A DNA stretch of 27,196 nucleotides from an uncultured virus (IMG/VR IMGVR_UViG_3300025070_000023) (IMGVR_UViG_3300025070_000023), one strand, 5' to 3'. Shown: positions 3,138 through 22,083, counted from the stretch's first letter. The notes: generated by a model not told the origin, from the letters alone. Numbers and translations are program-made.

Positions 3138-3230
3138 ACTCATTAACATTGTATCGCTTGAATGTGCTAGAACTGACCACAGGCACAATTTGAAACATTG
3201 TAAGATTTGCATGAAAAAGAGGGAAAAGAA

Positions 3231-3476
3231 ATGACTAGAGATGACGAAATCCATTGGGAGGAGGAAATAGGAACAAAAAGGTGTGAAAACTGTATACAAC
3301 ACATTGGTAAATATGACGGATGGCAACCGCATATTAGAGTATATACCGAGAAATACAGAAACACGGCAAACCCCTTGACTGATTTTAAAGATATATGCGT
3401 TACTTGTCATGATAGACCTAGTGACATGAAACCACTAGGGAGAAAGAGAACATTATTTGATGATTTATTTGGGTAA
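3231..3476 (+). CDS. Small Zn-finger protein (CENC...CVTC)
   Basis: Two CxxC motifs; start 3231 or 3207. Confidence 0.65.
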   Translation: MTRDDEIHWEEEIGTKRCENCIQHIGKYDGWQPHIRVYTEKYRNTANPLTDFKDICVTCHDRPSDMKPLGRKRTLFDDLFG

Positions 3477-3546
3477 ATCCCACATCCTCCGCTTGTCCTA
3501 ACAAGTAAAAAAATAGGGTGGCTTTAGGGTCACTCCGTTTCATCCA

Positions 3547-3577
3547 CAAAGTTTCATGACCATATGGTTGGGCTTTG
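3547..3577. repeat. Palindromic element copy 6
   Basis: CAAAG 3547-3551, CCATATGG 3560-3567, CTTTG 3573-3577; hairpin 3516-3535 precedes it. Confidence 0.9.
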
Positions 3578-3614
3578 GCCAACCTAGTATTCATTATAAA
3601 ATAATACAAGTTGT

Positions 3615-3845
3615 ATGGCGTTTTGTAGTTGCGGTATTTGTAGAGCGAAGTTTAATGGTGATAAGGCTCATCATTATTCGGATAATGAGGGTTTAGACCA
3701 TCACCCTAAATGTAATCACATTTTGGAAAAAGAAATCCATAGAGAACAATACTATGACGAAGAATTACAAGATATAGTTATTTTGTATGAATGGTATTAT
3801 TGCACCTGTGACGAAGAATACGCTAAAGAGGAGGAAGAAGAATAG
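3615..3845 (+). CDS. Cys/His-rich small protein (probable Zn binder) with acidic tail
   Basis: CSCGIC, HHPKC and CTC motifs; ATG lies 38 nt from palindrome copy 6. Confidence 0.75.
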   Translation: MAFCSCGICRAKFNGDKAHHYSDNEGLDHHPKCNHILEKEIHREQYYDEELQDIVILYEWYYCTCDEEYAKEEEEE

Positions 3846-3864
3846 GCCGTGAGGCCACTAACCG

Positions 3865-3888
3865 CAAAGTTTCATGACCATATGGTTG
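3865..3888. repeat. Palindromic element copy 7 (right CTTTG arm missing)
   Basis: CAAAGTTTCATGACCATATGGTTG, identical to 3547-3570; preceded by GGCC-GTGA-GGCC hairpin at 3845-3856. Confidence 0.85.
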
Positions 3889-3999
3889 TAAAAGTGCAAC
3901 AAATCATTATTACAACACTATCAATCAAACATGAATAGGTACTGACTTACATAACCCACTACAAACCCTTATTCTATGAGTCCTTTCCAATTGGCCTAA

Positions 4000-4315
4000 T
4001 GAATATTAATATATTAATATAATAGAGTAGAACCTTCGAGTCGTCTCATGAGTTAGAAAAGTGAGATGAGACAACGAAGAGAAGAAACTAGAGGGTTGTG
4101 TAACACATCTATTATATTATATCATACTATCTCATTATCTCATTATCTCATAATAATAATGATGATGAGAGAGAGTGAGTGAAAAATACCCTATGAGGTA
4201 TATATTAGGATTCGATGAGACGAGATGAGACAACCCAAAAGTGCAGGTTTGGGGTAGTTTCTTTAAAGTTGTGTTACATAAGTCATTGTCTCATCATGAG
4301 ATAACTCATGAGAAT
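4000..4315. repeat. Non-coding cluster of ATGAG(A)/(T)CTCAT direct and inverted repeats; candidate replication origin
   Basis: GAGATGAGACAAC at 4063-4075 and 4222-4234; (TATCTCAT)x3 at 4128-4151; GTCTCATGAG 4043-4052; TTGTCTCATC 4286-4295; CTCATGAGA 4305-4313; A/T-only tract near 4002-4024; no long ORF. Confidence 0.7.
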
Positions 4316-4396
4316 ACCAAAGGGTCGTTTGACAGGGCGATTCTATTATGGAGATTAAATTCTAATATATTAATACTTGAGCGAAAAAGAATTAAT

Positions 4397-4413
4397 TAGA
4401 CTCCTTTAAATAT
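4397..4413 (+). promoter_or_regulatory. Archaeal-type promoter TAGACTCCTTTAAATAT (TATA box TTTAAATA)
   Basis: TATA at 4405-4412, 23-30 nt before ATG 4435 (leaderless spacing); identical 17-mer at 9506-9522. Confidence 0.75.
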
Positions 4414-4434
4414 GAAATAATTTATGGTTAATAC

Positions 4435-4905
4435 ATGATTGATGAAGTCGAATGGCAAAGTATGGTAATAGAAGTTAATGATTATTTGAAGGCAGACCCC
4501 ACATTAAATGATGGTTTGAAGCAGGTAATCCAACTTAATTTACAAATAGGGAACAATAATCCCGATGAAAGAATAGCGGCAAAGGGTGCATTGAAGGCTC
4601 TATTGAAAGGAAGAGATGGAACTCCCTTTAAGCGAGGGCAGAAATCTAGTGTTCCTGCCACAGTTAGAGTATCTATTGATAAGGCAATTTCTATTATAGA
4701 AATAGAGTCACTTAATTATTACAATTCACACCCAATAATGTCAAAGGTTCTTCGTAAGCATATTAAATCCGGTGGAGGAGATTATGCCAATGGAGAAGAA
4801 TATGCCCACATTGTAGGTAAGAGGATGAGAAATGCACTTGCTAAAAGATACAAGGATGGAGATTGGGATGGGAATTACGACTCTCTACTAACTACGACAG
4901 AATGA
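4435..4905 (+). CDS. Unknown-function protein, diverged paralog 3
   Basis: Aligns by eye with 2302..2817: N-terminal W, IxLxLxxGxN, DGxP..RG..S, GGxY, KxGxWDG. Confidence 0.85.
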   Translation: MIDEVEWQSMVIEVNDYLKADPTLNDGLKQVIQLNLQIGNNNPDERIAAKGALKALLKGRDGTPFKRGQKSSVPATVRVSIDKAISIIEIESLNYYNSHPIMSKVLRKHIKSGGGDYANGEEYAHIVGKRMRNALAKRYKDGDWDGNYDSLLTTTE

Positions 4906-4925
4906 TGGTGGTGCGTCATTCACTA

Positions 4926-5000
4926 GTGGGATATTAGGGTGTTTTCTTTTCTCTTTTTTTTAGGTACTTGCGTGTTTTCGATAATGCCCTAATATCTCAC
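4926..5000 (+). terminator. 18-bp stem with pyrimidine-rich loop in the 3' UTR of 4435..4905
   Basis: Arms 4926-4943 and 4983-5000, with three G-U pairs on the plus strand; the loop contains oligo-T. Confidence 0.6.
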
Positions 5001-5018
5001 ACCCCCTTGGTGATTAAT

Positions 5019-5534
5019 ATGAATAAAGTACCTCAAAATGAAGCACACTTACACGACTCTATCATGAAGTATATTTTTGAAAGAATAGATAAGGAGATTA
5101 ATGCTCCTTGTCATCAATGGATTGGGCCAACTAGTACCTCTCTTAAATTACCCTCACCAAGAGCAAAGAAGTTTGTTAATGGATATAGAAATAGTTTCAT
5201 GCCACATATTGTCATGTACAATTATCACAACTATCCTAATAAAAAAAGTCCGATAGATTGGAATAAGGGCAAAGGTCAAGAAATAAGAAGAAAATGTAAT
5301 AATCTAATGTGCGTAAACATTGATTGTTTAGTTTTAGGGGATAGAAGTAAAACCATTCAAGCCACAATAAATAGGGGAAAGACGGCCATCGGGAATGACT
5401 ACGGTGTTAAGTATGATGCTGATATAATTAGGGCTGACCATCAAGCAGGACTTTCCTATCGAGATATTATGAAAAAGTACAATATACCCAGTAAAGGAAC
5501 AATATCCTACATTATAAATAAAGCAAAAAGGTGA
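5019..5534 (+). CDS. HNH (His-Cys box-like) homing endonuclease-related protein with C-terminal HTH, probably degenerate
   Basis: CHQWIG and RRKCNNLMCVNIDCL resemble the phage CWxWxG and HxCDNxxCVNPxHL motifs; GLSYRDIMKKYNIPSKGTISYII is HTH-like; GGTGA before ATG 5019. Confidence 0.65.
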   Translation: MNKVPQNEAHLHDSIMKYIFERIDKEINAPCHQWIGPTSTSLKLPSPRAKKFVNGYRNSFMPHIVMYNYHNYPNKKSPIDWNKGKGQEIRRKCNNLMCVNIDCLVLGDRSKTIQATINRGKTAIGNDYGVKYDADIIRADHQAGLSYRDIMKKYNIPSKGTISYIINKAKR

Positions 5535-9561: not shown

Positions 9562-9768
9562 ATGATTAGATTAAGAATTATGAACGAAACAGGCCATACA
9601 GAAGTAATGTTGAGTAGTGACAGCATTATCGAACAAATTGACACACACCCAACCCATTGGTGTTTTATTGATGGGGAAATGGTAGCAAGAGAAGAAATTT
9701 CGAATGTTAATTGGGATGAAGTCCAAGCAGTAGACCTAACTCCTGCTATTGTTGGAGGATGCGAATAA
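9562..9768 (+). CDS. Ubiquitin-like / beta-grasp (ThiS/MoaD/SAMP-type) small modifier ending in GG-CE
   Basis: 68 aa; N-terminal beta strands, FIDG segment, terminal VDLTPAIVGG matching the ThiS/MoaD '...P.v.GG' end; E1 and JAB genes nearby. Confidence 0.75.
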   Translation: MIRLRIMNETGHTEVMLSSDSIIEQIDTHPTHWCFIDGEMVAREEISNVNWDEVQAVDLTPAIVGGCE

Positions 9769-10364: not shown

Positions 10365-11531
10365 ATGGAAAAAATGGAAATACAAATTAAGAAACCAAAT
10401 GATAGTAATGAATATTATATAACATCAGTTTCCTGTAATGAAGAACAAGGAGTCTATTTTCCCACTAGGAGAACTGTTGTCTATGATATGACACATAAAG
10501 ACCCTGTTCATGCAGGTATTGTAAAATTATGGAAAGAGATTCTAGGAACTAGAAGAAGTTATTTTCCTAGCGATAGAGACTATAGCATAATGATTATGAT
10601 AAAATCTTGCCCTTTACTTATTGGTAGAAGCGGGAGTAGATTAAAACTTCAAGGGCAGTATGCTAGTCTTTCTACTATTGCCTCTATTTTAGCGAGGGTA
10701 ACTTACAAATCTTGTTTTGAAGATGACCCCGAAAAATTGATGTTAAGTGTTTATTCTACAATGAATTTACCCGAAGATGCTAGGTATTGTTTAGAAAACA
10801 GAATGCCATACCACTTTTACGAAGACTTTGAAAAGATAGAAGTTAGATTAAACTGTCAGCAAATTAGTGATACAGAATTAGCCGTAGAAATAACTGATGG
10901 TGTTTGGGGAACTATGAAAATAAAAGATGTTACAGCATATTGTAGTTTCTACTTACATAAAAATGAAAGAGGTAAGAAATGGAAACGGCTCTCACCTAAG
11001 AAATTGTATACTGTTCTAGTTGGTAAGAAACCAACAGATTCCCAATTAAAAGTAATGGCCGCCTTTCTAAAACAGAATAGAATGGGCGATATTGTAGAAA
11101 AGAGAGCCATGCAATTAGTAGATGATATGTTAGAACAACACCAAGAAAAACTAATACCGTTTTTCGATACAAATGGTGTTTTGAGAGATTTGGTTGTAAA
11201 AGGCAAACAACATGATTGGAGGCTTACATACCGAGGTTCCGGAGACTATAGAAGAACGACAGGTAGACAAAATGTTTCTACCTATATTCTTCAAGAAGTA
11301 ACTAGAGATGATGAATTAGTAAAAGAATGGAAAGGGCCGATATGTATAGATAACATGGCAGGAGGTTCTCCATTAGGCGACCAATATGCTGCTAGAGCAT
11401 TAGCCCTAATGAATGATACTCATACTATGAAAATAGTAAGCACAATTAGAAGTTACATTGTAAATGATAATAAAGATATAAGAGTGGATGAAAATGTATT
11501 GCGAAAATTGCGGGAAAGAGACTCCGAATGA
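10365..11531 (+). CDS. Hypothetical 388-aa protein; C-terminal GPICID cysteine motif (possible E2-like domain)
   Basis: The long ORF is certain; the function is inferred only from the motif and gene neighbourhood. Confidence 0.6.
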   Translation: MEKMEIQIKKPNDSNEYYITSVSCNEEQGVYFPTRRTVVYDMTHKDPVHAGIVKLWKEILGTRRSYFPSDRDYSIMIMIKSCPLLIGRSGSRLKLQGQYASLSTIASILARVTYKSCFEDDPEKLMLSVYSTMNLPEDARYCLENRMPYHFYEDFEKIEVRLNCQQISDTELAVEITDGVWGTMKIKDVTAYCSFYLHKNERGKKWKRLSPKKLYTVLVGKKPTDSQLKVMAAFLKQNRMGDIVEKRAMQLVDDMLEQHQEKLIPFFDTNGVLRDLVVKGKQHDWRLTYRGSGDYRRTTGRQNVSTYILQEVTRDDELVKEWKGPICIDNMAGGSPLGDQYAARALALMNDTHTMKIVSTIRSYIVNDNKDIRVDENVLRKLRERDSE

Positions 11532-12363
11532 GTTTGATGAAAGACTAGGAGAACACACTTGTTTAGATTGTGGCCTTGTTTTAGTTACAGAAATATTTGA
11601 ACAGACTGTTCATATTTTAGATAGTAGCGGAGAAGTAAGACATTCTATAGATAATAAATTAGGTTCAGTGAATGCCCCTAGTAAATTAAATAGACTAAAC
11701 AATCGTTCTATTTATTCTAAGAGTATTATCCAAGGATTGATTCATTGTAATATGGTTTTAGGCTCTATACAGCCCAACTCGCCACTAAAGGATAGAGTTG
11801 AAGAGTTTTACCTATACTGTAATAGAAAGGCAGTATTCGGTAAAACACAATACGAGGCTAGAGCAACCGCAGTAGTATATTATGTATTGAAAGAGAACGG
11901 AACTCCTCATCTATTGGCTGATGTAAATAGCGAATTTAATGCTAGGACAAAAACAGTAAAAAAACTATTGAGAAAGATGAATCAACTAAATAAAAACATG
12001 GTTAGTAGAAAACCTATCAATCCTCAATATCAATTAGAACAAGTATTAATGAAGATTAATGGTGGTTCTGTCTTCAATGAACAATGTTATGAAGTTTTAG
12101 AATATTTCGAAAGCGTTATTGTAAATAGCGACTTTAACAAAGGGCGTTCCTATTACGCCTGTATTGCGTGGATAGCGGCCAACTGTAATGTTAGAAAAGA
12201 CATACAACGGCAAATGATTTCTAAGAGAACGAAGTTTTCCGAATGGGTCATTTGGAACCAAACAAAAGCAATACTAAACCTAGTAGGAAAAGATAATGTA
12301 AACCAAATAAAAGGAAAGAAAATAACAATGGTGATTAAGAATGATAAAAGAAGAATGGATTGA
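11488..12363 (+). CDS. tfb: Transcription initiation factor IIB (TFB)-like protein
   Basis: N-terminal Zn ribbon CENCG...DERLGEHTCLDCGLVL, then two cyclin-like helical repeats (ATAVVYYVLK; ACIAWIAA). Confidence 0.8.
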   Translation: MKMYCENCGKETPNEFDERLGEHTCLDCGLVLVTEIFEQTVHILDSSGEVRHSIDNKLGSVNAPSKLNRLNNRSIYSKSIIQGLIHCNMVLGSIQPNSPLKDRVEEFYLYCNRKAVFGKTQYEARATAVVYYVLKENGTPHLLADVNSEFNARTKTVKKLLRKMNQLNKNMVSRKPINPQYQLEQVLMKINGGSVFNEQCYEVLEYFESVIVNSDFNKGRSYYACIAWIAANCNVRKDIQRQMISKRTKFSEWVIWNQTKAILNLVGKDNVNQIKGKKITMVIKNDKRRMD

Positions 12364-12538
12364 ATACTATGTGTATTTAGAAGAGTTAAGACAAAGTGGA
12401 GTAACCAATATGTTTGGTGCTACTCCATATTTGAGAGAAGAGTTTGGCTTAGGCCGAAGAGAGGCAATAAAGATTCTAGGTAGTTGGATGGATAACTATG
12501 CTGAATTGATAGAAAAAGGAATAATTAGGAGAGAATAA
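12341..12538 (+). CDS. Small phage-type helical protein (LRxSGxTNMFGAxPYL motif)
   Basis: Motif seen in small viral hypothetical proteins; GGTGA RBS. Confidence 0.75.
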   Translation: MIKEEWIEYYVYLEELRQSGVTNMFGATPYLREEFGLGRREAIKILGSWMDNYAELIEKGIIRRE

Positions 12539-12540
12539 AA

Positions 12541-13101
12541 ATGAAAAGAAAAATATTAATAATCGGAGCAGGCGGTATCGGGAGTTTCTTGTTACCGCTT
12601 TTAGATAAAGTAGAATTGTATAACATATCAGTAGCAGACCCCGATAAGGTAGAAAAGAAAAATCTACCATATCAAAACTTTAGTGCTGAGGATGTAGGAG
12701 AAAACAAAGCATCGGTTATGGGTAATAGATACCGTAGTGTAATGGGTGGTTCTCAATATCCTATTCTTAGTGAAAAACAAATGCAAGGATATGATTTGGT
12801 TATTTGTTGTGTAGATAACTTATCAGTTAGAAGAACATTATACAACACAACCGTTAAATGGCTTGACCTTAGAGCGCAAGGTAGAAATGCCGCACTTGTG
12901 TCGCATAAAGCAGACCCAAAGATGTATGATATGCTTTTAGCAGGTAAAGACGGTTCATTTAGTTGTCAAGGAGATTCATGGGATGGTTCAAACAAAGGAG
13001 TGCATTTTATGCAAGTTGCTATTGCAGGTTTGGGCGCACAATGGATTCAAAGATGGTTTAATGAAGAACAAGTACAAGAATATATGGTGGTGAACCTATG
13101 A
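12541..13101 (+). CDS. ThiF/MoeB/E1-family adenylyltransferase (minimal E1)
   Basis: ILIIGAGGIGS, DPDKVEKKNLPYQ, VGENKA, YDLVICCVDN...R. Confidence 0.9.
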   Translation: MKRKILIIGAGGIGSFLLPLLDKVELYNISVADPDKVEKKNLPYQNFSAEDVGENKASVMGNRYRSVMGGSQYPILSEKQMQGYDLVICCVDNLSVRRTLYNTTVKWLDLRAQGRNAALVSHKADPKMYDMLLAGKDGSFSCQGDSWDGSNKGVHFMQVAIAGLGAQWIQRWFNEEQVQEYMVVNL

Positions 13102-13401: not shown

Positions 13402-14022
13402 ATGGGAAGAATGAAAGATAAATATTTTAATGAAATAAATAGTGATGATGATGGTAATGGTGAATTTGAAGACCAATCCGAATTGAATTATTGGAGAAAA
13501 ATCGCTGAAAAGTATATTCATGATGCGTTTTTGACTGAAATGGAGTCGGTATGGAGTGGTTATGAAATTGAAGAGGGTGAGAATTTATCCGATATGGAAT
13601 GTGCTAAAATAGTAATAAAAAGCAAGGCGTTCTTTAAGGCTATATGGCATGCCTCAACAGAAATATTACCTAAGTTAGAAGTCCAAGTAGTTTTAGACGG
13701 TAGCGCAAAAATATTTGTTACTACAGGTTCATCAGGTTATGTTGAATTTGGATTACAACCACCAATAGGACTAAAATTACCTATCAAGTGTTGGATTCAT
13801 ACTCATCCATTTGCTTCTGCCTATTTTAGTGGAACAGATTGGATGACCGTTGGTAATTGGAAATCACTGATGGAAGAAGCCTATGTATTGGGTGGCGTAG
13901 AACATTATGGCCATTGGGTCAATACTAAGCCAAATAACTTGTTAATTAGATGGGTTGATAATAATGGTCTTGAAACATTTAAAGTGCAACAACAAAGACA
14001 AATAGAAGGTGAAGAAGAATGA
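13402..14022 (+). CDS. JAB/MPN+ (JAMM) metallopeptidase
   Basis: Upstream catalytic Glu (LEVQ) and WIHTHPFASAYFSGTD matching HxH-x7-S-x2-D; AGGTGA RBS before ATG 13402. Confidence 0.9.
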   Translation: MGRMKDKYFNEINSDDDGNGEFEDQSELNYWRKIAEKYIHDAFLTEMESVWSGYEIEEGENLSDMECAKIVIKSKAFFKAIWHASTEILPKLEVQVVLDGSAKIFVTTGSSGYVEFGLQPPIGLKLPIKCWIHTHPFASAYFSGTDWMTVGNWKSLMEEAYVLGGVEHYGHWVNTKPNNLLIRWVDNNGLETFKVQQQRQIEGEEE

Positions 14023-14237
14023 AAGCAGTAGGAGATTATGCATGTATTGAAATTGAAAACACTATCACTAGTAGTGGCATTCAAGTAAAGAACGATGGTA
14101 TTGGGGTTTGTTTATCCTGCCCATCTAAACCTGATTTGATAGATAAGCGAGTATTGTTTGACATAAATCAAAAGTTTTACGAATATGAATATATGATATT
14201 TATTGATAGTAAATTTATCATGGGGGTAATTGAATGA
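14019..14237 (+). CDS. groES: GroES-like co-chaperonin (short)
   Basis: MKAVGD...TSSGI...RVLF...IMGVIE follows the GroES pattern; directly upstream of GroEL. Confidence 0.75.
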   Translation: MKAVGDYACIEIENTITSSGIQVKNDGIGVCLSCPSKPDLIDKRVLFDINQKFYEYEYMIFIDSKFIMGVIE

Positions 14238-15730
14238 TATTGAATGGAGAAGAAGTTAAACAAAAATTATTGGAAGGAATTAATATAGTGGCAAATACTG
14301 TGAGTCCTACTTTGGGGCCACAAGCCAAAACTGTTATTTTACAAGGTAATCCTCCTATAATAATTAACGATGGTGTAACTATTACTAAGCACATTTCTAG
14401 TGATGACCCGTATGTTCAAATGGGAATACAACTGGTTCAAAATCTAGCAAGTAAAGCACAAGAAGGTAGTGGTGATGGAACAACTACCGCTTGTATTCTT
14501 GCTCAAGCATTATGTCAAAATATGCCTATTGGTGGGGATTTGAAACCGCATCAATTTAATCTTCTAATAGAATATCTAAAAGAAGAGGCCATAGGTTATT
14601 TCAATGCTATTTCCACAAAGGTAGAAAATGAAGACATACTTAATGTTGCCACTATAGCGGCTAACAATGATGCTGAAATGGGTAAATTAATACAAGAGGC
14701 ATTAAATGAAGTTGGTAGAGATGGCATAGTTACCGTTGAAGAATCAAATAACTATCAAACTAATCTAGTTGTTAGAGAAGGAATGGAAATAACCGAGGGC
14801 TATCTAAGTCATTTAATGTGCAATACTGATTCCGGTAGAGTAGAATATAATGACCCTCTAGTATTTATGTCAAATATTCCATTTAGAAACTTCAAGGATA
14901 TTATTCCTCTTTTAGAATATTCTTCTGCTAAGTCTAAGCCTCTTGTTATTATGTGCAAAGGCATGGAAGGTTCAGCGTTGAATAACCTCATAATGAATTT
15001 AATTAACCAAACAGTACAGTGTGCTGTAGTATTAGCCCCTAATTTTGGAGATGCTCAAATAGATGAATTAGGAGATATTCAATCTTTAATTGGCGGTAGA
15101 GTTTTCAATCACGAAAGTAAAGATGACCCTGCTTCTTTTACTGAACTAGATTTAGGAACCTGTAGTAAGTTGATAATTACTAAAGAAACTACAACCTTTA
15201 TTGGTGGTGAAGGAGAAACAGAAGAAAGAATCAAATCTCTAAAGGGAGCATTAGAAGGAATGAAGGGTCACGATGCCGCTAGAATCAAAGCAAGAATTGC
15301 TAGACTAAAAGGCGGTGTAGCCACTATTCAAGTCGGTGCTTCTTCATCTATTGAAATGAGGGAAAAGAAAGAAAGATTAGACGATGCTCTTAATGCTACA
15401 AAGGCCGCATTAGAAGAAGGCATTGTAGTCGGTGGCGGTATGCCATTTGTAAATTTCGCAAATGAATATAAAGAAAAGATACCGCATTGGTTTTATCAAT
15501 CTTTATTACAGCCTTGTAGACAACTACACTACAATAGCGGGCATCACCCTGTAGGAATAGAAGAATGGAAAGGTGAAACTGGATTTAATGCTCTAACAGA
15601 TAGAGTGGATAATCTAGCAATAGCGGGAGTTTATGACCCTGTTAAAGTAACCAAAAATAGTTTCTTAGCGGCTATGTCAATTGCTCAATTGTTTTATACA
15701 ACAGATGTAGCGGTATTGTTGGAGGAATGA
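14234..15730 (+). CDS. groEL: Group I chaperonin GroEL
   Basis: TLGP, NDGVTI, GDGTTT, VTVEES, APxFGD, RIARLKGGVA, EKKERLDDALNATKAALEEGIVVGGG, DPVKV. Confidence 0.97.
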   Translation: MILNGEEVKQKLLEGINIVANTVSPTLGPQAKTVILQGNPPIIINDGVTITKHISSDDPYVQMGIQLVQNLASKAQEGSGDGTTTACILAQALCQNMPIGGDLKPHQFNLLIEYLKEEAIGYFNAISTKVENEDILNVATIAANNDAEMGKLIQEALNEVGRDGIVTVEESNNYQTNLVVREGMEITEGYLSHLMCNTDSGRVEYNDPLVFMSNIPFRNFKDIIPLLEYSSAKSKPLVIMCKGMEGSALNNLIMNLINQTVQCAVVLAPNFGDAQIDELGDIQSLIGGRVFNHESKDDPASFTELDLGTCSKLIITKETTTFIGGEGETEERIKSLKGALEGMKGHDAARIKARIARLKGGVATIQVGASSSIEMREKKERLDDALNATKAALEEGIVVGGGMPFVNFANEYKEKIPHWFYQSLLQPCRQLHYNSGHHPVGIEEWKGETGFNALTDRVDNLAIAGVYDPVKVTKNSFLAAMSIAQLFYTTDVAVLLEE

Positions 15731-17250: not shown

Positions 17251-17407
17251 ATGGATTTACTTAGCAAACGCTATGTGGACATATTCAGAAAAGAATGAAG
17301 GTGAGATATCCCGCCTTCTAAAAGAAGTGGTTATTAGATTAAATAAAAATATGGAAGTGATTATAGATGACATGGGAAATAATGAGCCGAATGTTAGAAT
17401 CAAATGA
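17237..17407 (+). CDS. Hypothetical small protein
   Basis: GGTGA RBS before ATG 17237. Confidence 0.55.
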   Translation: MKKSEWIYLANAMWTYSEKNEGEISRLLKEVVIRLNKNMEVIIDDMGNNEPNVRIK

Positions 17408-18899
17408 TTCTATCGCACAAACACAGCAAATAAATGGAATAGTTAGAAGTTTGAAAATGTCAGTATTGACTCCAAGTGGAGTATTGCCTATATTAGATAA
17501 AGATAATTTGCCAAGCAATAATATTGGATTATCTAGGGCAAAGAAATGGCTAGCAAAAATCTTTCAAGTCTTTGAAAGTGAAATTGATGGTCTTTATGCC
17601 GCACATAATTGCTTAGGTTCCGCTATTTATTATTTAGAGCCTTCAGCAGAATATAAAAAACAGTATTCTCTAAAACAGATATATAATTTATTAATAATGG
17701 ACACCGGAACGATTGATTCTAATTGCTTCAAACTACTAGAGGAAATACTACCGAATATGTCTGCTAATGCTAGACAATGGTTTGTTAGATATTGGATTAG
17801 GAAACCTAGAAATGGAATCAACGAGGGAATAGTAACTAAAATACTGGCCAAGCACTACAATAAACCTGTAAAAGAAGTTAAGAAACATCTTAATTTTAAT
17901 AGTTTAGATGTAGTGACATCTCATTACAATGCTTCGAGAAACCCCCCATGTAATTTAACACACGGTAAATTTGTAAAGCCAATGTTGGCCAAAGAAGTTC
18001 CTATGGACAAGTGGCCTACAAATAGAATTGTAGATTACAAATATGATGGTAATAGATATCAAATACATAAGCAAGGTGATAATGTAATTATCTTCAATCG
18101 GAAAGGTTCTATTGTTACACCACAGTTTCAAGATGTAGTAGAATCAGTTAGAGAATATTATGTTGATTGTATTCTAGACGGAGAGATTTATCCAATTAAA
18201 GATGATGGTTCACCTGCTGAACATAAACTAATGGGAACAAGAGTCCATTCTAAGAACCATGCAGAAGCAAGAGAAAGGGTCGCTGTTAAATGGGTTATTT
18301 TTGATTGCCTAAAAATCGGATTAGAAACTATAATGGAATTACCCTACTCTAAAAGAGTGCTAAAAATGTCTAAATTACCCGACCAAGCACACAGAATGGC
18401 CGAAGATGGTGACACATTAGCATTCTATAACCAAGCCATTAATGATGGATTTGAGGGCATCATAGTTAAAGATTCATCACTACCTTATGAAGCAGGAAAG
18501 CGAAGTATTGGATGGGCTAAGTATAAGCCACCTAGAATAAATCTTGATGTTGTGATTGTTAAGGCTAAATATGGCCAAGGCATTAGGTCAAATGTATTTG
18601 GAACATTTGAGATAGCAGTTAAGAATGATACTGAATTTGTTTCCGTCGGGAGTGTCGGTTCGGGATTTAGCGATGAAGATTTAATTAAACTAACAAATAC
18701 ATTAAGAAGAAATGTTATTTCGTTTGAGAATAAAACATTTGAGTTAGCACCTAAAGTTATTCTAGAAGTTACTGCTGATTTAGTTTCTAGAGATGAGAAC
18801 AATAACTTAGGATTAAGATTCCCAAGATGTATTAGAATTAGGGATGATAAGTTTGTTGCTGATATTAATACATTAAGAGATGTGGAGGCATTAGAATGA
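17367..18899 (+). CDS. lig: ATP-dependent DNA ligase
   Basis: KPMLA, motif I KYDGNRYQIH, ILDGEI, FDCL, EGIIVK, WAKYK, VGSGFSD, LRFPR...IRDDK. Confidence 0.97.
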   Translation: MTWEIMSRMLESNDSIAQTQQINGIVRSLKMSVLTPSGVLPILDKDNLPSNNIGLSRAKKWLAKIFQVFESEIDGLYAAHNCLGSAIYYLEPSAEYKKQYSLKQIYNLLIMDTGTIDSNCFKLLEEILPNMSANARQWFVRYWIRKPRNGINEGIVTKILAKHYNKPVKEVKKHLNFNSLDVVTSHYNASRNPPCNLTHGKFVKPMLAKEVPMDKWPTNRIVDYKYDGNRYQIHKQGDNVIIFNRKGSIVTPQFQDVVESVREYYVDCILDGEIYPIKDDGSPAEHKLMGTRVHSKNHAEARERVAVKWVIFDCLKIGLETIMELPYSKRVLKMSKLPDQAHRMAEDGDTLAFYNQAINDGFEGIIVKDSSLPYEAGKRSIGWAKYKPPRINLDVVIVKAKYGQGIRSNVFGTFEIAVKNDTEFVSVGSVGSGFSDEDLIKLTNTLRRNVISFENKTFELAPKVILEVTADLVSRDENNNLGLRFPRCIRIRDDKFVADINTLRDVEALE

Positions 18900-20955: not shown

Positions 20956-21197
20956 AAAATAAATGGATGCATATAAGAATAAAAGAAATGTTAAAAGATA
21001 AAGAATTAACCACAGGGCAAATCAAAGACAACCTTTGGAATGCCAAGACTAAGAAAGGCACTCCGGTAAAGAAAGGGATGCCATCTACACATCAATTACA
21101 AATGCTTCTTAGAATACATTATGAGAAAGCAGGATTTTGTAATCAAGTGACACAAACAATATGGAGGAATAGAAATGTTATGGACAGAAAAATATAG
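20952..21197 (+). CDS. Small basic winged-helix-like protein
   Basis: LTTGQIKDNL...PSTHQLQMLL...TIW pattern. Confidence 0.6.
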   Translation: MKNKWMHIRIKEMLKDKELTTGQIKDNLWNAKTKKGTPVKKGMPSTHQLQMLLRIHYEKAGFCNQVTQTIWRNRNVMDRKI

Positions 21198-22083
21198 ACC
21201 AAGTAAATTAGAACACATTATCGGACAAGAGCATTTTGTATTAGATGCTAAAACATGGGTAGAAGAAAACAATATGCCTAATGTTTTACTTTATGGTAAT
21301 GCAGGTAACGGAAAAACAGGAGCAGGAATAGTTTTAGGAAAAGAAATACTGAAAGATAGTTTCAAAGAAAACTTCTATGAAGTAAATGCTTCCGATGACA
21401 GAAGATTGGAAATGGTTAGAACTACTATCAAAGAAGTAGCGCAAAGCCGTTCAATAGGAGGTGTTCCTTTCAAAATTATGTTGTTAGATGAAATGGATGG
21501 AATGACCGGAGACGCACAAAATGCTTTGAAAAGAATTATGGAAAGATATTCGAATAATATTCGCTTTGTTATTACTTGTAATAATAGAAACAAAATTGTA
21601 TTTCCTATACAAAGTAGATGTGCTAATTATCATTTTAAACCATTAAGCAACAATTCGGTAAAACAAGTCTTAAAGTCTATTTTGTCAAAAGAGAACATTG
21701 ATAGGTTTTCGGATGAAGAATTAGACTCCTTTATATATGCTATGAATGGTGATATGAGGAGAGCGATAACCGAATTACAGGCCGCCAAGTCAAGTGGAAC
21801 TACACTCAAGAAACAAGTGTCGGCTTCACTAGATGACTTCAAAAAATTGATAATGAAAATGAATCAAAGAAATACTAGTGCATTAGGAGACATTCATGAT
21901 ATGATATACTACGGACTTTCAATGAAAGAAATATGTTTAGGATTACACGATGCTGTAATTGAAATGGATGAACTAGACAGCACTACTAAATTTAAATTCC
22001 TTAGAACTATAGGGGAAAGCGAATGGCGTTCCACTACTATGACCCCTAAAGTGCTAGCCTCATGGTTAGTTGGAAATATATAG
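21175..22083 (+). CDS. rfcS: Replication factor C small subunit
   Basis: WTEKYRP, GNAGNGKT, EVNASDDR, LLDEMD, AQNALKRIME, IQSRC, GDMRRAI. Confidence 0.97.
   Translation: MLWTEKYRPSKLEHIIGQEHFVLDAKTWVEENNMPNVLLYGNAGNGKTGAGIVLGKEILKDSFKENFYEVNASDDRRLEMVRTTIKEVAQSRSIGGVPFKIMLLDEMDGMTGDAQNALKRIMERYSNNIRFVITCNNRNKIVFPIQSRCANYHFKPLSNNSVKQVLKSILSKENIDRFSDEELDSFIYAMNGDMRRAITELQAAKSSGTTLKKQVSASLDDFKKLIMKMNQRNTSALGDIHDMIYYGLSMKEICLGLHDAVIEMDELDSTTKFKFLRTIGESEWRSTTMTPKVLASWLVGNI

Follow-up and report, generated by a model that had tools for sequence, protein, structure and literature searches.

A virus-encoded candidate E2-like protein with a predicted UBC-type fold, encoded with putative Ubl, E1, and JAMM genes in a genome of magrovirus type

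The T388 family, its invariant cysteine, and its predicted fold

The DNA analyzed here (the window) is a 27.2-kb stretch (27,196 nucleotides) from an uncultured virus (IMG/VR IMGVR_UViG_3300025070_000023), which by gene content holds a replication module of magrovirus type. At positions 10365..11531 of the plus strand, it encodes a 388-aa protein, named T388 in this work, in a gene block that also includes a putative ubiquitin-like protein (Ubl), a ThiF/MoeB-type E1-like adenylating enzyme (E1), and a JAMM/JAB metalloprotease (Table 1). From a cysteine motif and from the position of the gene between Ubl and E1, the original prediction had proposed T388 as a possible unconventional E2. Translation of the open reading frame (ORF) confirmed the protein, its cysteine motif, and the lack of an HPN motif, which occurs nowhere in T388; the LVVKGK...ICI...GD...ALAL.ND pattern is also present as written, and the gene does lie between Ubl and E1, with three more ORFs in the interval. 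The true start may be M1 or M4, since homologues start at the position of MKIxI.

The N-terminal ~220 aa of T388 have no assigned fold, and the C-terminal part is predicted to be UBC-like. The candidate catalytic residue, Cys327, lies in this C-terminal part within the motif KGPICIDNMAGGSP, which is followed by a conserved helix, LGDQ..RALAL.ND. The central string of the motif, G-P-I-C-I-D-N-M, is similar to the E2 active-site consensus G-x-I-C-L-D-x-L, and the pattern G.IC[ILV]D occurs a single time in the six-frame translation of the window. At E<=1e-3, T388 has 184 homologues (213-679 aa, best 87% identity), all metagenomic and many of them marine, and 218 relatives were confirmed in viral contigs. 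Across the window and 80 viral loci, Cys327 is invariant (81/81 sequences), whereas the other cysteines vary at the four tested of the six remaining positions: C193 is kept in 74/81, C117 in 61/81, C82 in 50/81, and C142 in 48/81. The same holds at much greater divergence, in an alignment of the window protein with 37 full-length members from among the most divergent (20-34% identity to it), taken from a profile search of 1.84 billion representative proteins. Cys327 is kept there in all 38 sequences, and the only other invariant residues are W181, G280, Q302, Q340, R344, and T360; downstream of the cysteine, D339, Q340, R344, N350, and D351 are invariant or nearly so. Conservation of the cysteine, which had been proposed as a check on the E2 idea, is thus borne out, and its invariance in both sequence sets indicates strong selection on the motif.

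A profile of the C-terminal domain retrieved 154 relatives from the 1.84 billion representatives, all from one family except for a single false positive (P0220), a 1617-aa Cna_B-repeat protein whose E-value of 1.5e-21 arose from the summing of ten VSGxxYDWTIT-like repeats. Family members of 149-204 aa were considered as stand-alone genes of E2 size, but look like N-terminally cut fragments.

Template-free AlphaFold2 (AF2) models were made of the full-length protein, with an alignment of 104 sequences, and of residues 222-388, with 71 sequences. The full-length model is multi-domain (predicted local distance difference test score, pLDDT, 83.5; predicted template-modeling score, pTM, 0.53), and the C-terminal domain modeled alone gave a pLDDT of 84.5 and a pTM of 0.76. 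In the models, the domain begins with helices at 225-239 and 241-258, continues with strands at 263-267, 273-279, 284-289, 304-314, and 317-326, and ends, after Cys327, with helices at 337-349, 351-357, 359-364, and 376-385. The N-terminal helix, antiparallel sheet, crossover helix, and C-terminal helices that make up the UBC alpha/beta core are all found in these predictions, at modest fold-match scores (Z 4.3-5.7); the place of the HPN-bearing loop is taken by a longer hairpin, with a variable insert of 0-60 residues preceding it.

Both models were compared with 48,161 representative chains by VIA-align, giving four lists (whole model, domain model, and two second-look lists). The lists consist almost wholly of E2, UEV, or RWD proteins at Z 3.7-5.7 overall, in a range (Z <8) where by the program's own calibration a match can reflect merely a common arrangement. 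Matches of the whole model lie over residues 238-377 and include UBE2S (Z 5.6, root-mean-square deviation (rmsd) 3.6, 105 aligned residues), Ubc9 (Z 5.5), FANCL and UBE2O (both Z 5.3), and RWD domains. The domain model matched best to the ELF domain of FANCL (Z 5.5, rmsd 3.2, 86 aligned), and also to Ubc9 (Z 5.3), UBE2J2 and UBE2F (both Z 5.0), and a chain of the bacterial BubCD-BubB-BubA complex (Z 3.8). Among the top 50 rows of the domain-model list, 35 are named as E2/UBC or RWD, ten more are proteins that we take to be UBC-like (FANCL, Knl1/KMN, FTS, BRE, VPS37A, Pex4, ASFV I215L, and UFC1), and four cannot be classified by title (two Mediator chains, a SEA-complex chain, and a ribosome-complex chain). 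By title, 47/50 and 48/50 rows of the second-look lists are catalytic E2s or UEVs, with alignments that span 105-132 residues of the ~150-residue E2 cores at rmsd 3.5-5.9 Å; the best match is Rad6 (7w76_A; Z 5.7, rmsd 4.0, 126 aligned), and 22 chains reach at least Z 5. Because the lists are uniform and coverage of the E2 core is near complete, the C-terminal domain of T388 (residues ~238-380) very probably has a UBC-type fold, as far as the models go. The N-terminal region gave weak matches in the whole-model search to PsiB (Z 5.0), YkuJ, a DddI-type immunity protein, and Csm1, which are not interpretable.

The catalytic cysteine of E2 enzymes is found in the segment that links the last sheet strand to the crossover helix. 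By the order of the predicted secondary-structure elements, Cys327 follows immediately on the last strand (317-326) and is followed in turn by the 337-349 helix, and judged by this order it is topologically equivalent to the E2 catalytic cysteine.

Neighboring genes, co-occurrence, and virus lineage

The putative Ubl has homologues that without exception (71/71) end in VGG (GG for the divergent lineages) plus a variable tail of 0-2 residues, and both glycines (G65 and G66) are invariant in 45 sequences. A terminal GG with a tail of 0-2 residues is, at the level of sequence, the signature of a precursor Ubl. A profile of this protein found nothing among the PDB sequences, and the nearest named ESM-Atlas cluster is a ThiS-family one from Thermoplasmatota, at a score of 0.84 that serves as a lead only. 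The E1 carries the expected signatures, namely GAGGIG (GxGGIGS), D92/N93, R97, R111, and an invariant Cys142 in S-x-S-C-Q, and is very conserved (78% mean column identity); its profile matches in the PDB are a ThiF-type protein, Cap2, UBA5, NAE, MoeB, and ThiF, and the PADLOC Cap2 'E1-E2' models match it in their E1 part. In the metalloprotease, the canonical JAMM motif HTHPFASAYFSGTD (HxHx7SxxD) is kept across 70 distinct homologues.

The tightest neighbor of T388 is the gene of a TFIIB-type zinc-ribbon protein. The start of this gene and the 3' end of T388 share 44 nt in the window, and the overlap is of similar size in the relatives inspected. A phmmer search with this protein found nothing among the PDB sequences; a TFB-like factor encoded by the virus would be in keeping with an archaeal host.

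Gene content was compared in 80 loci anchored on T388, of which 80 carry the TFIIB-like gene, 77 the E1, 76 the JAB, and 71 the Ubl gene; in each case of absence, the contig ends on that side. When the best 80 of 389 E1 relatives were used as anchors, T388 was present in all 60 loci that extend 4.5 kb or more upstream, JAB in 77/77, and Ubl in 51/52. The most divergent T388 lineages (10/10 loci) also have all four genes within ~9 kb, in a somewhat different order in three loci. T388 does not occur separately from the Ubl, E1, and JAB genes in the loci examined. This is the distribution that the E2 idea had called for, with the caveat that all of these loci come from a single, syntenic lineage of viruses. 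Equally faithful companions of T388 are the TFIIB-like gene, the chaperonin gene, and the 125-aa ORF that directly precedes T388.

Table 1. Positions of T388, its motif, and neighboring genes in the window.
Feature	Position	Strand	Evidence or remarks
DenV-type pyrimidine-dimer DNA glycosylase, 211 aa	7869-8504	+	Pfam Pyr_excise 3e-8; phrog_624 1e-46
Putative Ubl, 68 aa, ending ...PAIVGG-CE	9562..9768	+	GG codons 9754-9759
ORF directly upstream of T388, 125 aa	9853..10230	+	Poorly conserved, without family; in 70-72/80 loci
T388, 388 aa	10365..11531	+	ORF; 184 homologues; AF2 model
T388 C-terminal domain, residues 222-388	11028..11528	+	AF2, VIA-align
Motif KGPICIDNMAGGSP, residues 323-336, with candidate catalytic Cys327	11331..11372	+	ORF translation, alignments
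Codon of Cys327 (TGT)	11343-11345		
TFIIB-type zinc-ribbon protein, 291 aa	11488..12363	+	Pfam Zn_Ribbon_TF 2.1e-6, 27.6 bits (cut-off 29); PHROG 20431
Further ORF between T388 and E1	12341-12538		ORF call
ThiF/MoeB-type E1-like adenylating enzyme, 186 aa	12541..13101	+	Pfam ThiF 2e-17
Codon of E1 Cys142	12964-12966		
ORF between E1 and JAB, 100 aa	13098-13400	+	No family found
JAMM/JAB metalloprotease, 209 aa	13393..14022	+	Weak Pfam Prok-JAB match over motif, E 0.018
JAMM motif HTHPFASAYFSGTD, residues 136-149	13798-13839	+	Kept across homologues
ORF immediately upstream of chaperonin, 72 aa	14019-14237	+	Conserved in 54-63/80 loci
GroEL-type chaperonin	14234-15730		Pfam 1.7e-39; PHROG 7.9e-108
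ATP-dependent DNA ligase	17367-18899		Pfam/PHROG scan
Replication-factor-C ATPase	21175-22083		Pfam/PHROG scan
Family-B DNA polymerase	25549 to window end		Pfam/PHROG scan

Several smaller observations concern these neighbors. The putative Ubl gave a weak match to the T4 Lon protease inhibitor PinA (Pfam E 1.2e-4, 22.5 bits, cut-off 27; phrog_2167 E 0.003), a match that may be fortuitous or may point to a role connected with proteases. The 100-aa ORF between E1 and JAB is the short form of a protein that has 160-410 aa in most relatives and is shared only in part. The 72-aa ORF before the chaperonin was considered by eye as a GroES/co-chaperonin, a likeness with no support from Pfam or PDB sequences. 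Many relatives have two more genes between Ubl and the 125-aa ORF, namely an ORF of ~127 aa and a ribonucleotide-reductase-like gene of ~620 aa with a Pfam match to Ribonuc_red_lgC at 4.9e-8 (for example at 3227-5481 of locus L005, and in L007, L016, L024, L030, L036, L053, L065, and L075); the window and its closest relatives (L001-L004) carry neither. The placement of the pyrimidine-dimer glycosylase gene relative to the cassette likewise differs between relatives.

The genes of the window are AT-rich (GC ~0.34) and all on one strand from ~3 kb onward. On its match to the magrovirus replicative module, the source of the window is a virus of marine Poseidoniales archaea; magroviruses are described as head-tailed viruses with Marine Group II (Poseidoniales) archaea as their assigned hosts, and their replicative module as highly conserved in gene order (Philosof et al., 2017, PMC5434244). 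Megablast and tblastn searches against 50,697 deposited phage records found no match, and T388 relatives are carried by IMG/VR contigs, many of them 92-98 kb long. A single IMG/VR contig of 184,733 bp (loci L016, L060, and L113), about twice the usual ~95 kb, bears two differing copies of the whole cassette, with T388 copies at 48% and 40% identity to the window protein, and may be a chimeric assembly or a concatenation of two magroviruses. Among the genomes of 185,579 prokaryotic species, T388 relatives were found in only two, both on contigs of metagenome-assembled genomes (MAGs). These MAGs are labeled as the bacteria Balneolaceae and Maricaulis, and the contigs carry T388 and a viral-type E1 (L180 and L181; L182 and L183 on contigs C122 and C24 of G001, which has two E1 copies on separate contigs); they are most likely mis-binned viral contigs.

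Candidate role of T388 and alternative explanations

The reading that we favor, to which we give an even chance, is that T388 is a new virus-encoded, sequence-orphan E2-like enzyme with a ~220-aa N-terminal extension, acting in a four-part conjugation cascade. This interpretation is plausible and the best available, and it is built on a predicted fold with modest scores, an invariant cysteine, and synteny that is not independent. The steps of such a cascade, their order, the part played by the N-terminal region, and the targets are what we infer from these data. The JAMM protease would trim the 0-2 residues that follow Gly-Gly in the 68-aa Ubl, and may later strip the Ubl off its targets. The 186-aa E1 would adenylate the exposed Ubl C-terminus and may carry the Ubl on its invariant Cys142. 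From there, the Ubl would move as a thioester to Cys327 of T388, in the motif G-P-I-C-I-D-N between the predicted UBC-type sheet and crossover helix, and T388 would hand it to lysines of viral or host proteins, with the ~220-residue N-terminal extension possibly docking the E1 or picking substrates, as in E2/E3 hybrids. Prokaryotic and bacterial E2-like families without the classical His offer a precedent (Iyer et al., 2006, PMC1779556).

Several results weigh against this interpretation. The E2 proposal gained a predicted UBC/E2-type fold over the C-terminal ~150 residues and an invariant cysteine, but no profile link to E2 families. Pfam at E<=0.1 gave no UQ_con (PF00179) and no meaningful family for T388 (DUF7053 at E 0.069 only), and at E<=10 gave no UQ_con, Prok-E2 family, or DUF4132 for 71 homologues of the C-terminal domain; the same scans speak against the suggestion, made alongside the E2 idea, of a DUF4132-like, non-UBC fold. 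PADLOC returned no match for T388, a phmmer search with T388 and a profile search with its C-domain found no E2 among PDB sequences (only chance matches to Hsp40/Sis1 at E ~1 and CorA at E 1), and hhalign against seven Cap2-type Prok-E2_B domains from bacterial genomes gave a Prob of 0.4%. The fold search that had been proposed for the C-terminal region was likewise split, with lists of E2, UEV, and RWD chains from VIA-align but, for both models, nothing from Foldseek against the PDB at E<=1e-3; the VIA-align Z values, at most 5.7, are modest, and the top matches include non-catalytic ones, among them FANCL ELF and many RWD and UEV domains. The placement of Cys327 is read from the order of predicted elements, and the alignments show neither a conserved His nor a conserved Asn within the 15 residues that precede it. 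In addition, none of the Ubl, E1, and JAB genes directly adjoins T388, whose closest partner is the TFIIB-like gene, and the co-occurrence counts are not independent events, because the block as a whole is syntenic within a single lineage of viruses. It is established that neither archaeal SAMP nor bacterial TtuB requires an E2, and the Ubl, E1, and JAB genes therefore need no fourth enzyme.

Other searches placed T388 in no named family: PHROGs gave only phrog_32800, of unknown function (E 0.005), BFVD held three unnamed members of the T388 family itself and nothing else, and the ESM Atlas had nothing above 0.75 for the C-terminal domain. UQ_con, looked for in 401 bacterial genomes to obtain E2 sequences, was not found there. 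The UBC-type fold predicted for T388 may reflect either homology or convergence.

The alternative that survives best keeps the fold and gives up the chemistry: T388 would be a non-catalytic adaptor or scaffold of UBC, RWD, or UEV type with a structural Cys327, binding the Ubl or the JAMM protein, for example, as BRE/BRCC45 does for BRCC36 or as FANCL ELF binds ubiquitin. In the domain-model list, FANCL ELF, RWD, UEV, and BRE chains score like catalytic E2s (Z 5.5, 4.7, and 4.3 versus 5.0-5.3), the weak Foldseek matches of the full-length model include BRE (6gvw_C, 362 columns), and T388 lacks both HPN and sequence similarity to catalytic E2s. However, non-catalytic UBC-like domains by definition lack the cysteine, whereas the single cysteine of T388 is invariant down to 20% identity and sits within a local G-x-I-C-[IL]-D string like that of the E2 active site; a lone buried cysteine is also seldom invariant while the other tested cysteine positions vary. 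An adaptor role is rather unlikely.

T388 might also be unrelated to the Ubl system and act as a partner of the TFIIB-like protein in virus-directed transcription, with its proximity to the Ubl, E1, and JAB genes being inherited synteny. The overlap of the two genes, the presence of the TFIIB-like gene after T388 in all 80 loci, the 0-4 variable small genes that separate it from E1, and the Mediator subunits among the weak full-length Foldseek matches are in line with such a role. A UBC-type fold with an invariant cysteine has no known role in basal transcription, though, and in the divergent lineage of L081-L083 the ORF after T388 is not recognized as TFIIB-like while Ubl, E1, and JAB are still nearby; this explanation is unlikely. 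Very improbable is a sulfur-carrier pathway of QbsE/QbsD/QbsC or CysO/Mec+ style, in which the Ubl would form a thiocarboxylate and Cys327 would relay a persulfide or accept sulfur for nucleic-acid or metabolite modification: the ThiS-family cluster is the nearest named one to the Ubl (a lead only), the E1 matches MoeB, ThiF, and Uba4 as well as UBA5, NAE, and Cap2, and in the QbsE/QbsD system a JAMM protease reportedly trims a two-residue tail after GG, but a Pfam scan of 32 window ORFs found no rhodanese, cysteine desulfurase, or thiolation enzyme, and the UBC-type fold is not known as a sulfurtransferase.

If T388 is an E2-like enzyme, a broader proposal follows, which we hold only tentatively: that magroviruses carry a self-contained Ubl conjugation cascade, consisting of a precursor Ubl, a JAMM maturase/isopeptidase, a minimal E1, and a new family of E2/E3 hybrids, and that they tag host or viral proteins with it during infection. 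The transcription machinery could be a target, as hinted by the overlapping TFIIB-like gene and because the host TBP is sampylated in Haloferax (PMC4895103).

The literature found so far on archaeal viruses notes the ThiF/MoeB gene only: it is described as prevalent in archaeal viruses (RaFAH, PMC8276007), and E1-like genes are reported in the Asgard virus Nidhogg (bioRxiv 10.1101/2021.07.29.454249). A full-text search returned no paper joining magrovirus with ubiquitin, and none among the matches listed joins magrovirus with ThiF, JAB, MoeB, or JAMM. The main text and two text supplements of Philosof et al. (2017) contain no ubiquitin, ThiF, JAB, or TFIIB, though supplementary tables in other formats could list such annotations, and a term search of a 2025 paper on Poseidoniales viruses (PMC11706807) gave no mention of the same four terms.

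In the surface ocean, magroviruses rank with the most abundant viruses of archaea. An E2 step in Ubl conjugation is known in eukaryotes and a few archaea and, since recently, in bacterial systems that act against phages. If the conjugation reading is true, it would here be the virus that owns the machinery, in a group of archaeal viruses that is uncultured and abundant worldwide; the cassette would be the first complete system for conjugation to be described from a virus of archaea, with an E2 family invisible to sequence methods, and would add to the UBC fold a family that no sequence profile detects. The compact set of four proteins (68, 186, 209, and 388 aa) is testable in vitro though the host is uncultured.

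Comparison with known systems

Canonical UBC proteins (UQ_con PF00179; Rad6, Ubc9, UbcH5, and UBE2S) share with T388 the predicted fold over ~110-130 residues, a single essential-looking cysteine between sheet and crossover helix, and the string G-x-I-C-[IL]-D, and T388 is encoded together with an E1, a GG-ended Ubl, and a JAMM isopeptidase. Unlike these proteins, T388 has no HPN and no detectable sequence or profile similarity to them, and it has an extra strand and the variable 0-60 residue insert before the cysteine, as well as the 220-residue N-terminal extension; the partner E1 also differs in being a minimal, 186-aa ThiF-type protein, too short for a ubiquitin-fold domain. UBE2O-type E2/E3 hybrids (UBE2O at Z 4.7-5.3) likewise combine a UBC-like core with large extra domains in one chain, whereas the extension of T388 is N-terminal only, unrelated in sequence, and without an assigned fold. 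The FANCL ELF/DRWD, RWD, and UEV domains (Mms2, VPS37A, and BRE/BRCC45) resemble T388 in predicted fold, but they have no active-site cysteine, and T388 keeps one invariantly.

The E2-like proteins of bacterial operons (classes 6c/6d of Iyer et al., 2006, Cap2, Bil, and Bub) are found in the same kind of neighborhood of Ubl, E1, E2-like, and JAB genes, and the classical E2 His is described as missing from them as well (PMC1779556); Cap2 is further linked to the viral system by the matches of the viral E1 to Cap2 models in PADLOC and the PDB. Bub systems are reported to use oxyester instead of thioester intermediates (PMC11601596). Unlike these bacterial proteins, T388 has no sequence link to Prok-E2 families and is carried by an archaeal virus, not by a bacterial defense island. 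Among archaeal systems, both SAMP/UbaA/JAMM1 and the Caldiarchaeum Ub/E1/E2/RING/Rpn11 operon have, like the virus, a small GG-ended modifier, a ThiF-type E1, and a JAMM protease. Sampylation needs no E2, whereas the virus system has a candidate for one; the Caldiarchaeum E2 is described as a recognizable UBC (PMC5654768), whereas the virus system is viral and its candidate E2 is a sequence orphan. On the models and searches given here, the description that fits T388 best is that of a new family, restricted to viruses, with a predicted UBC-type fold.

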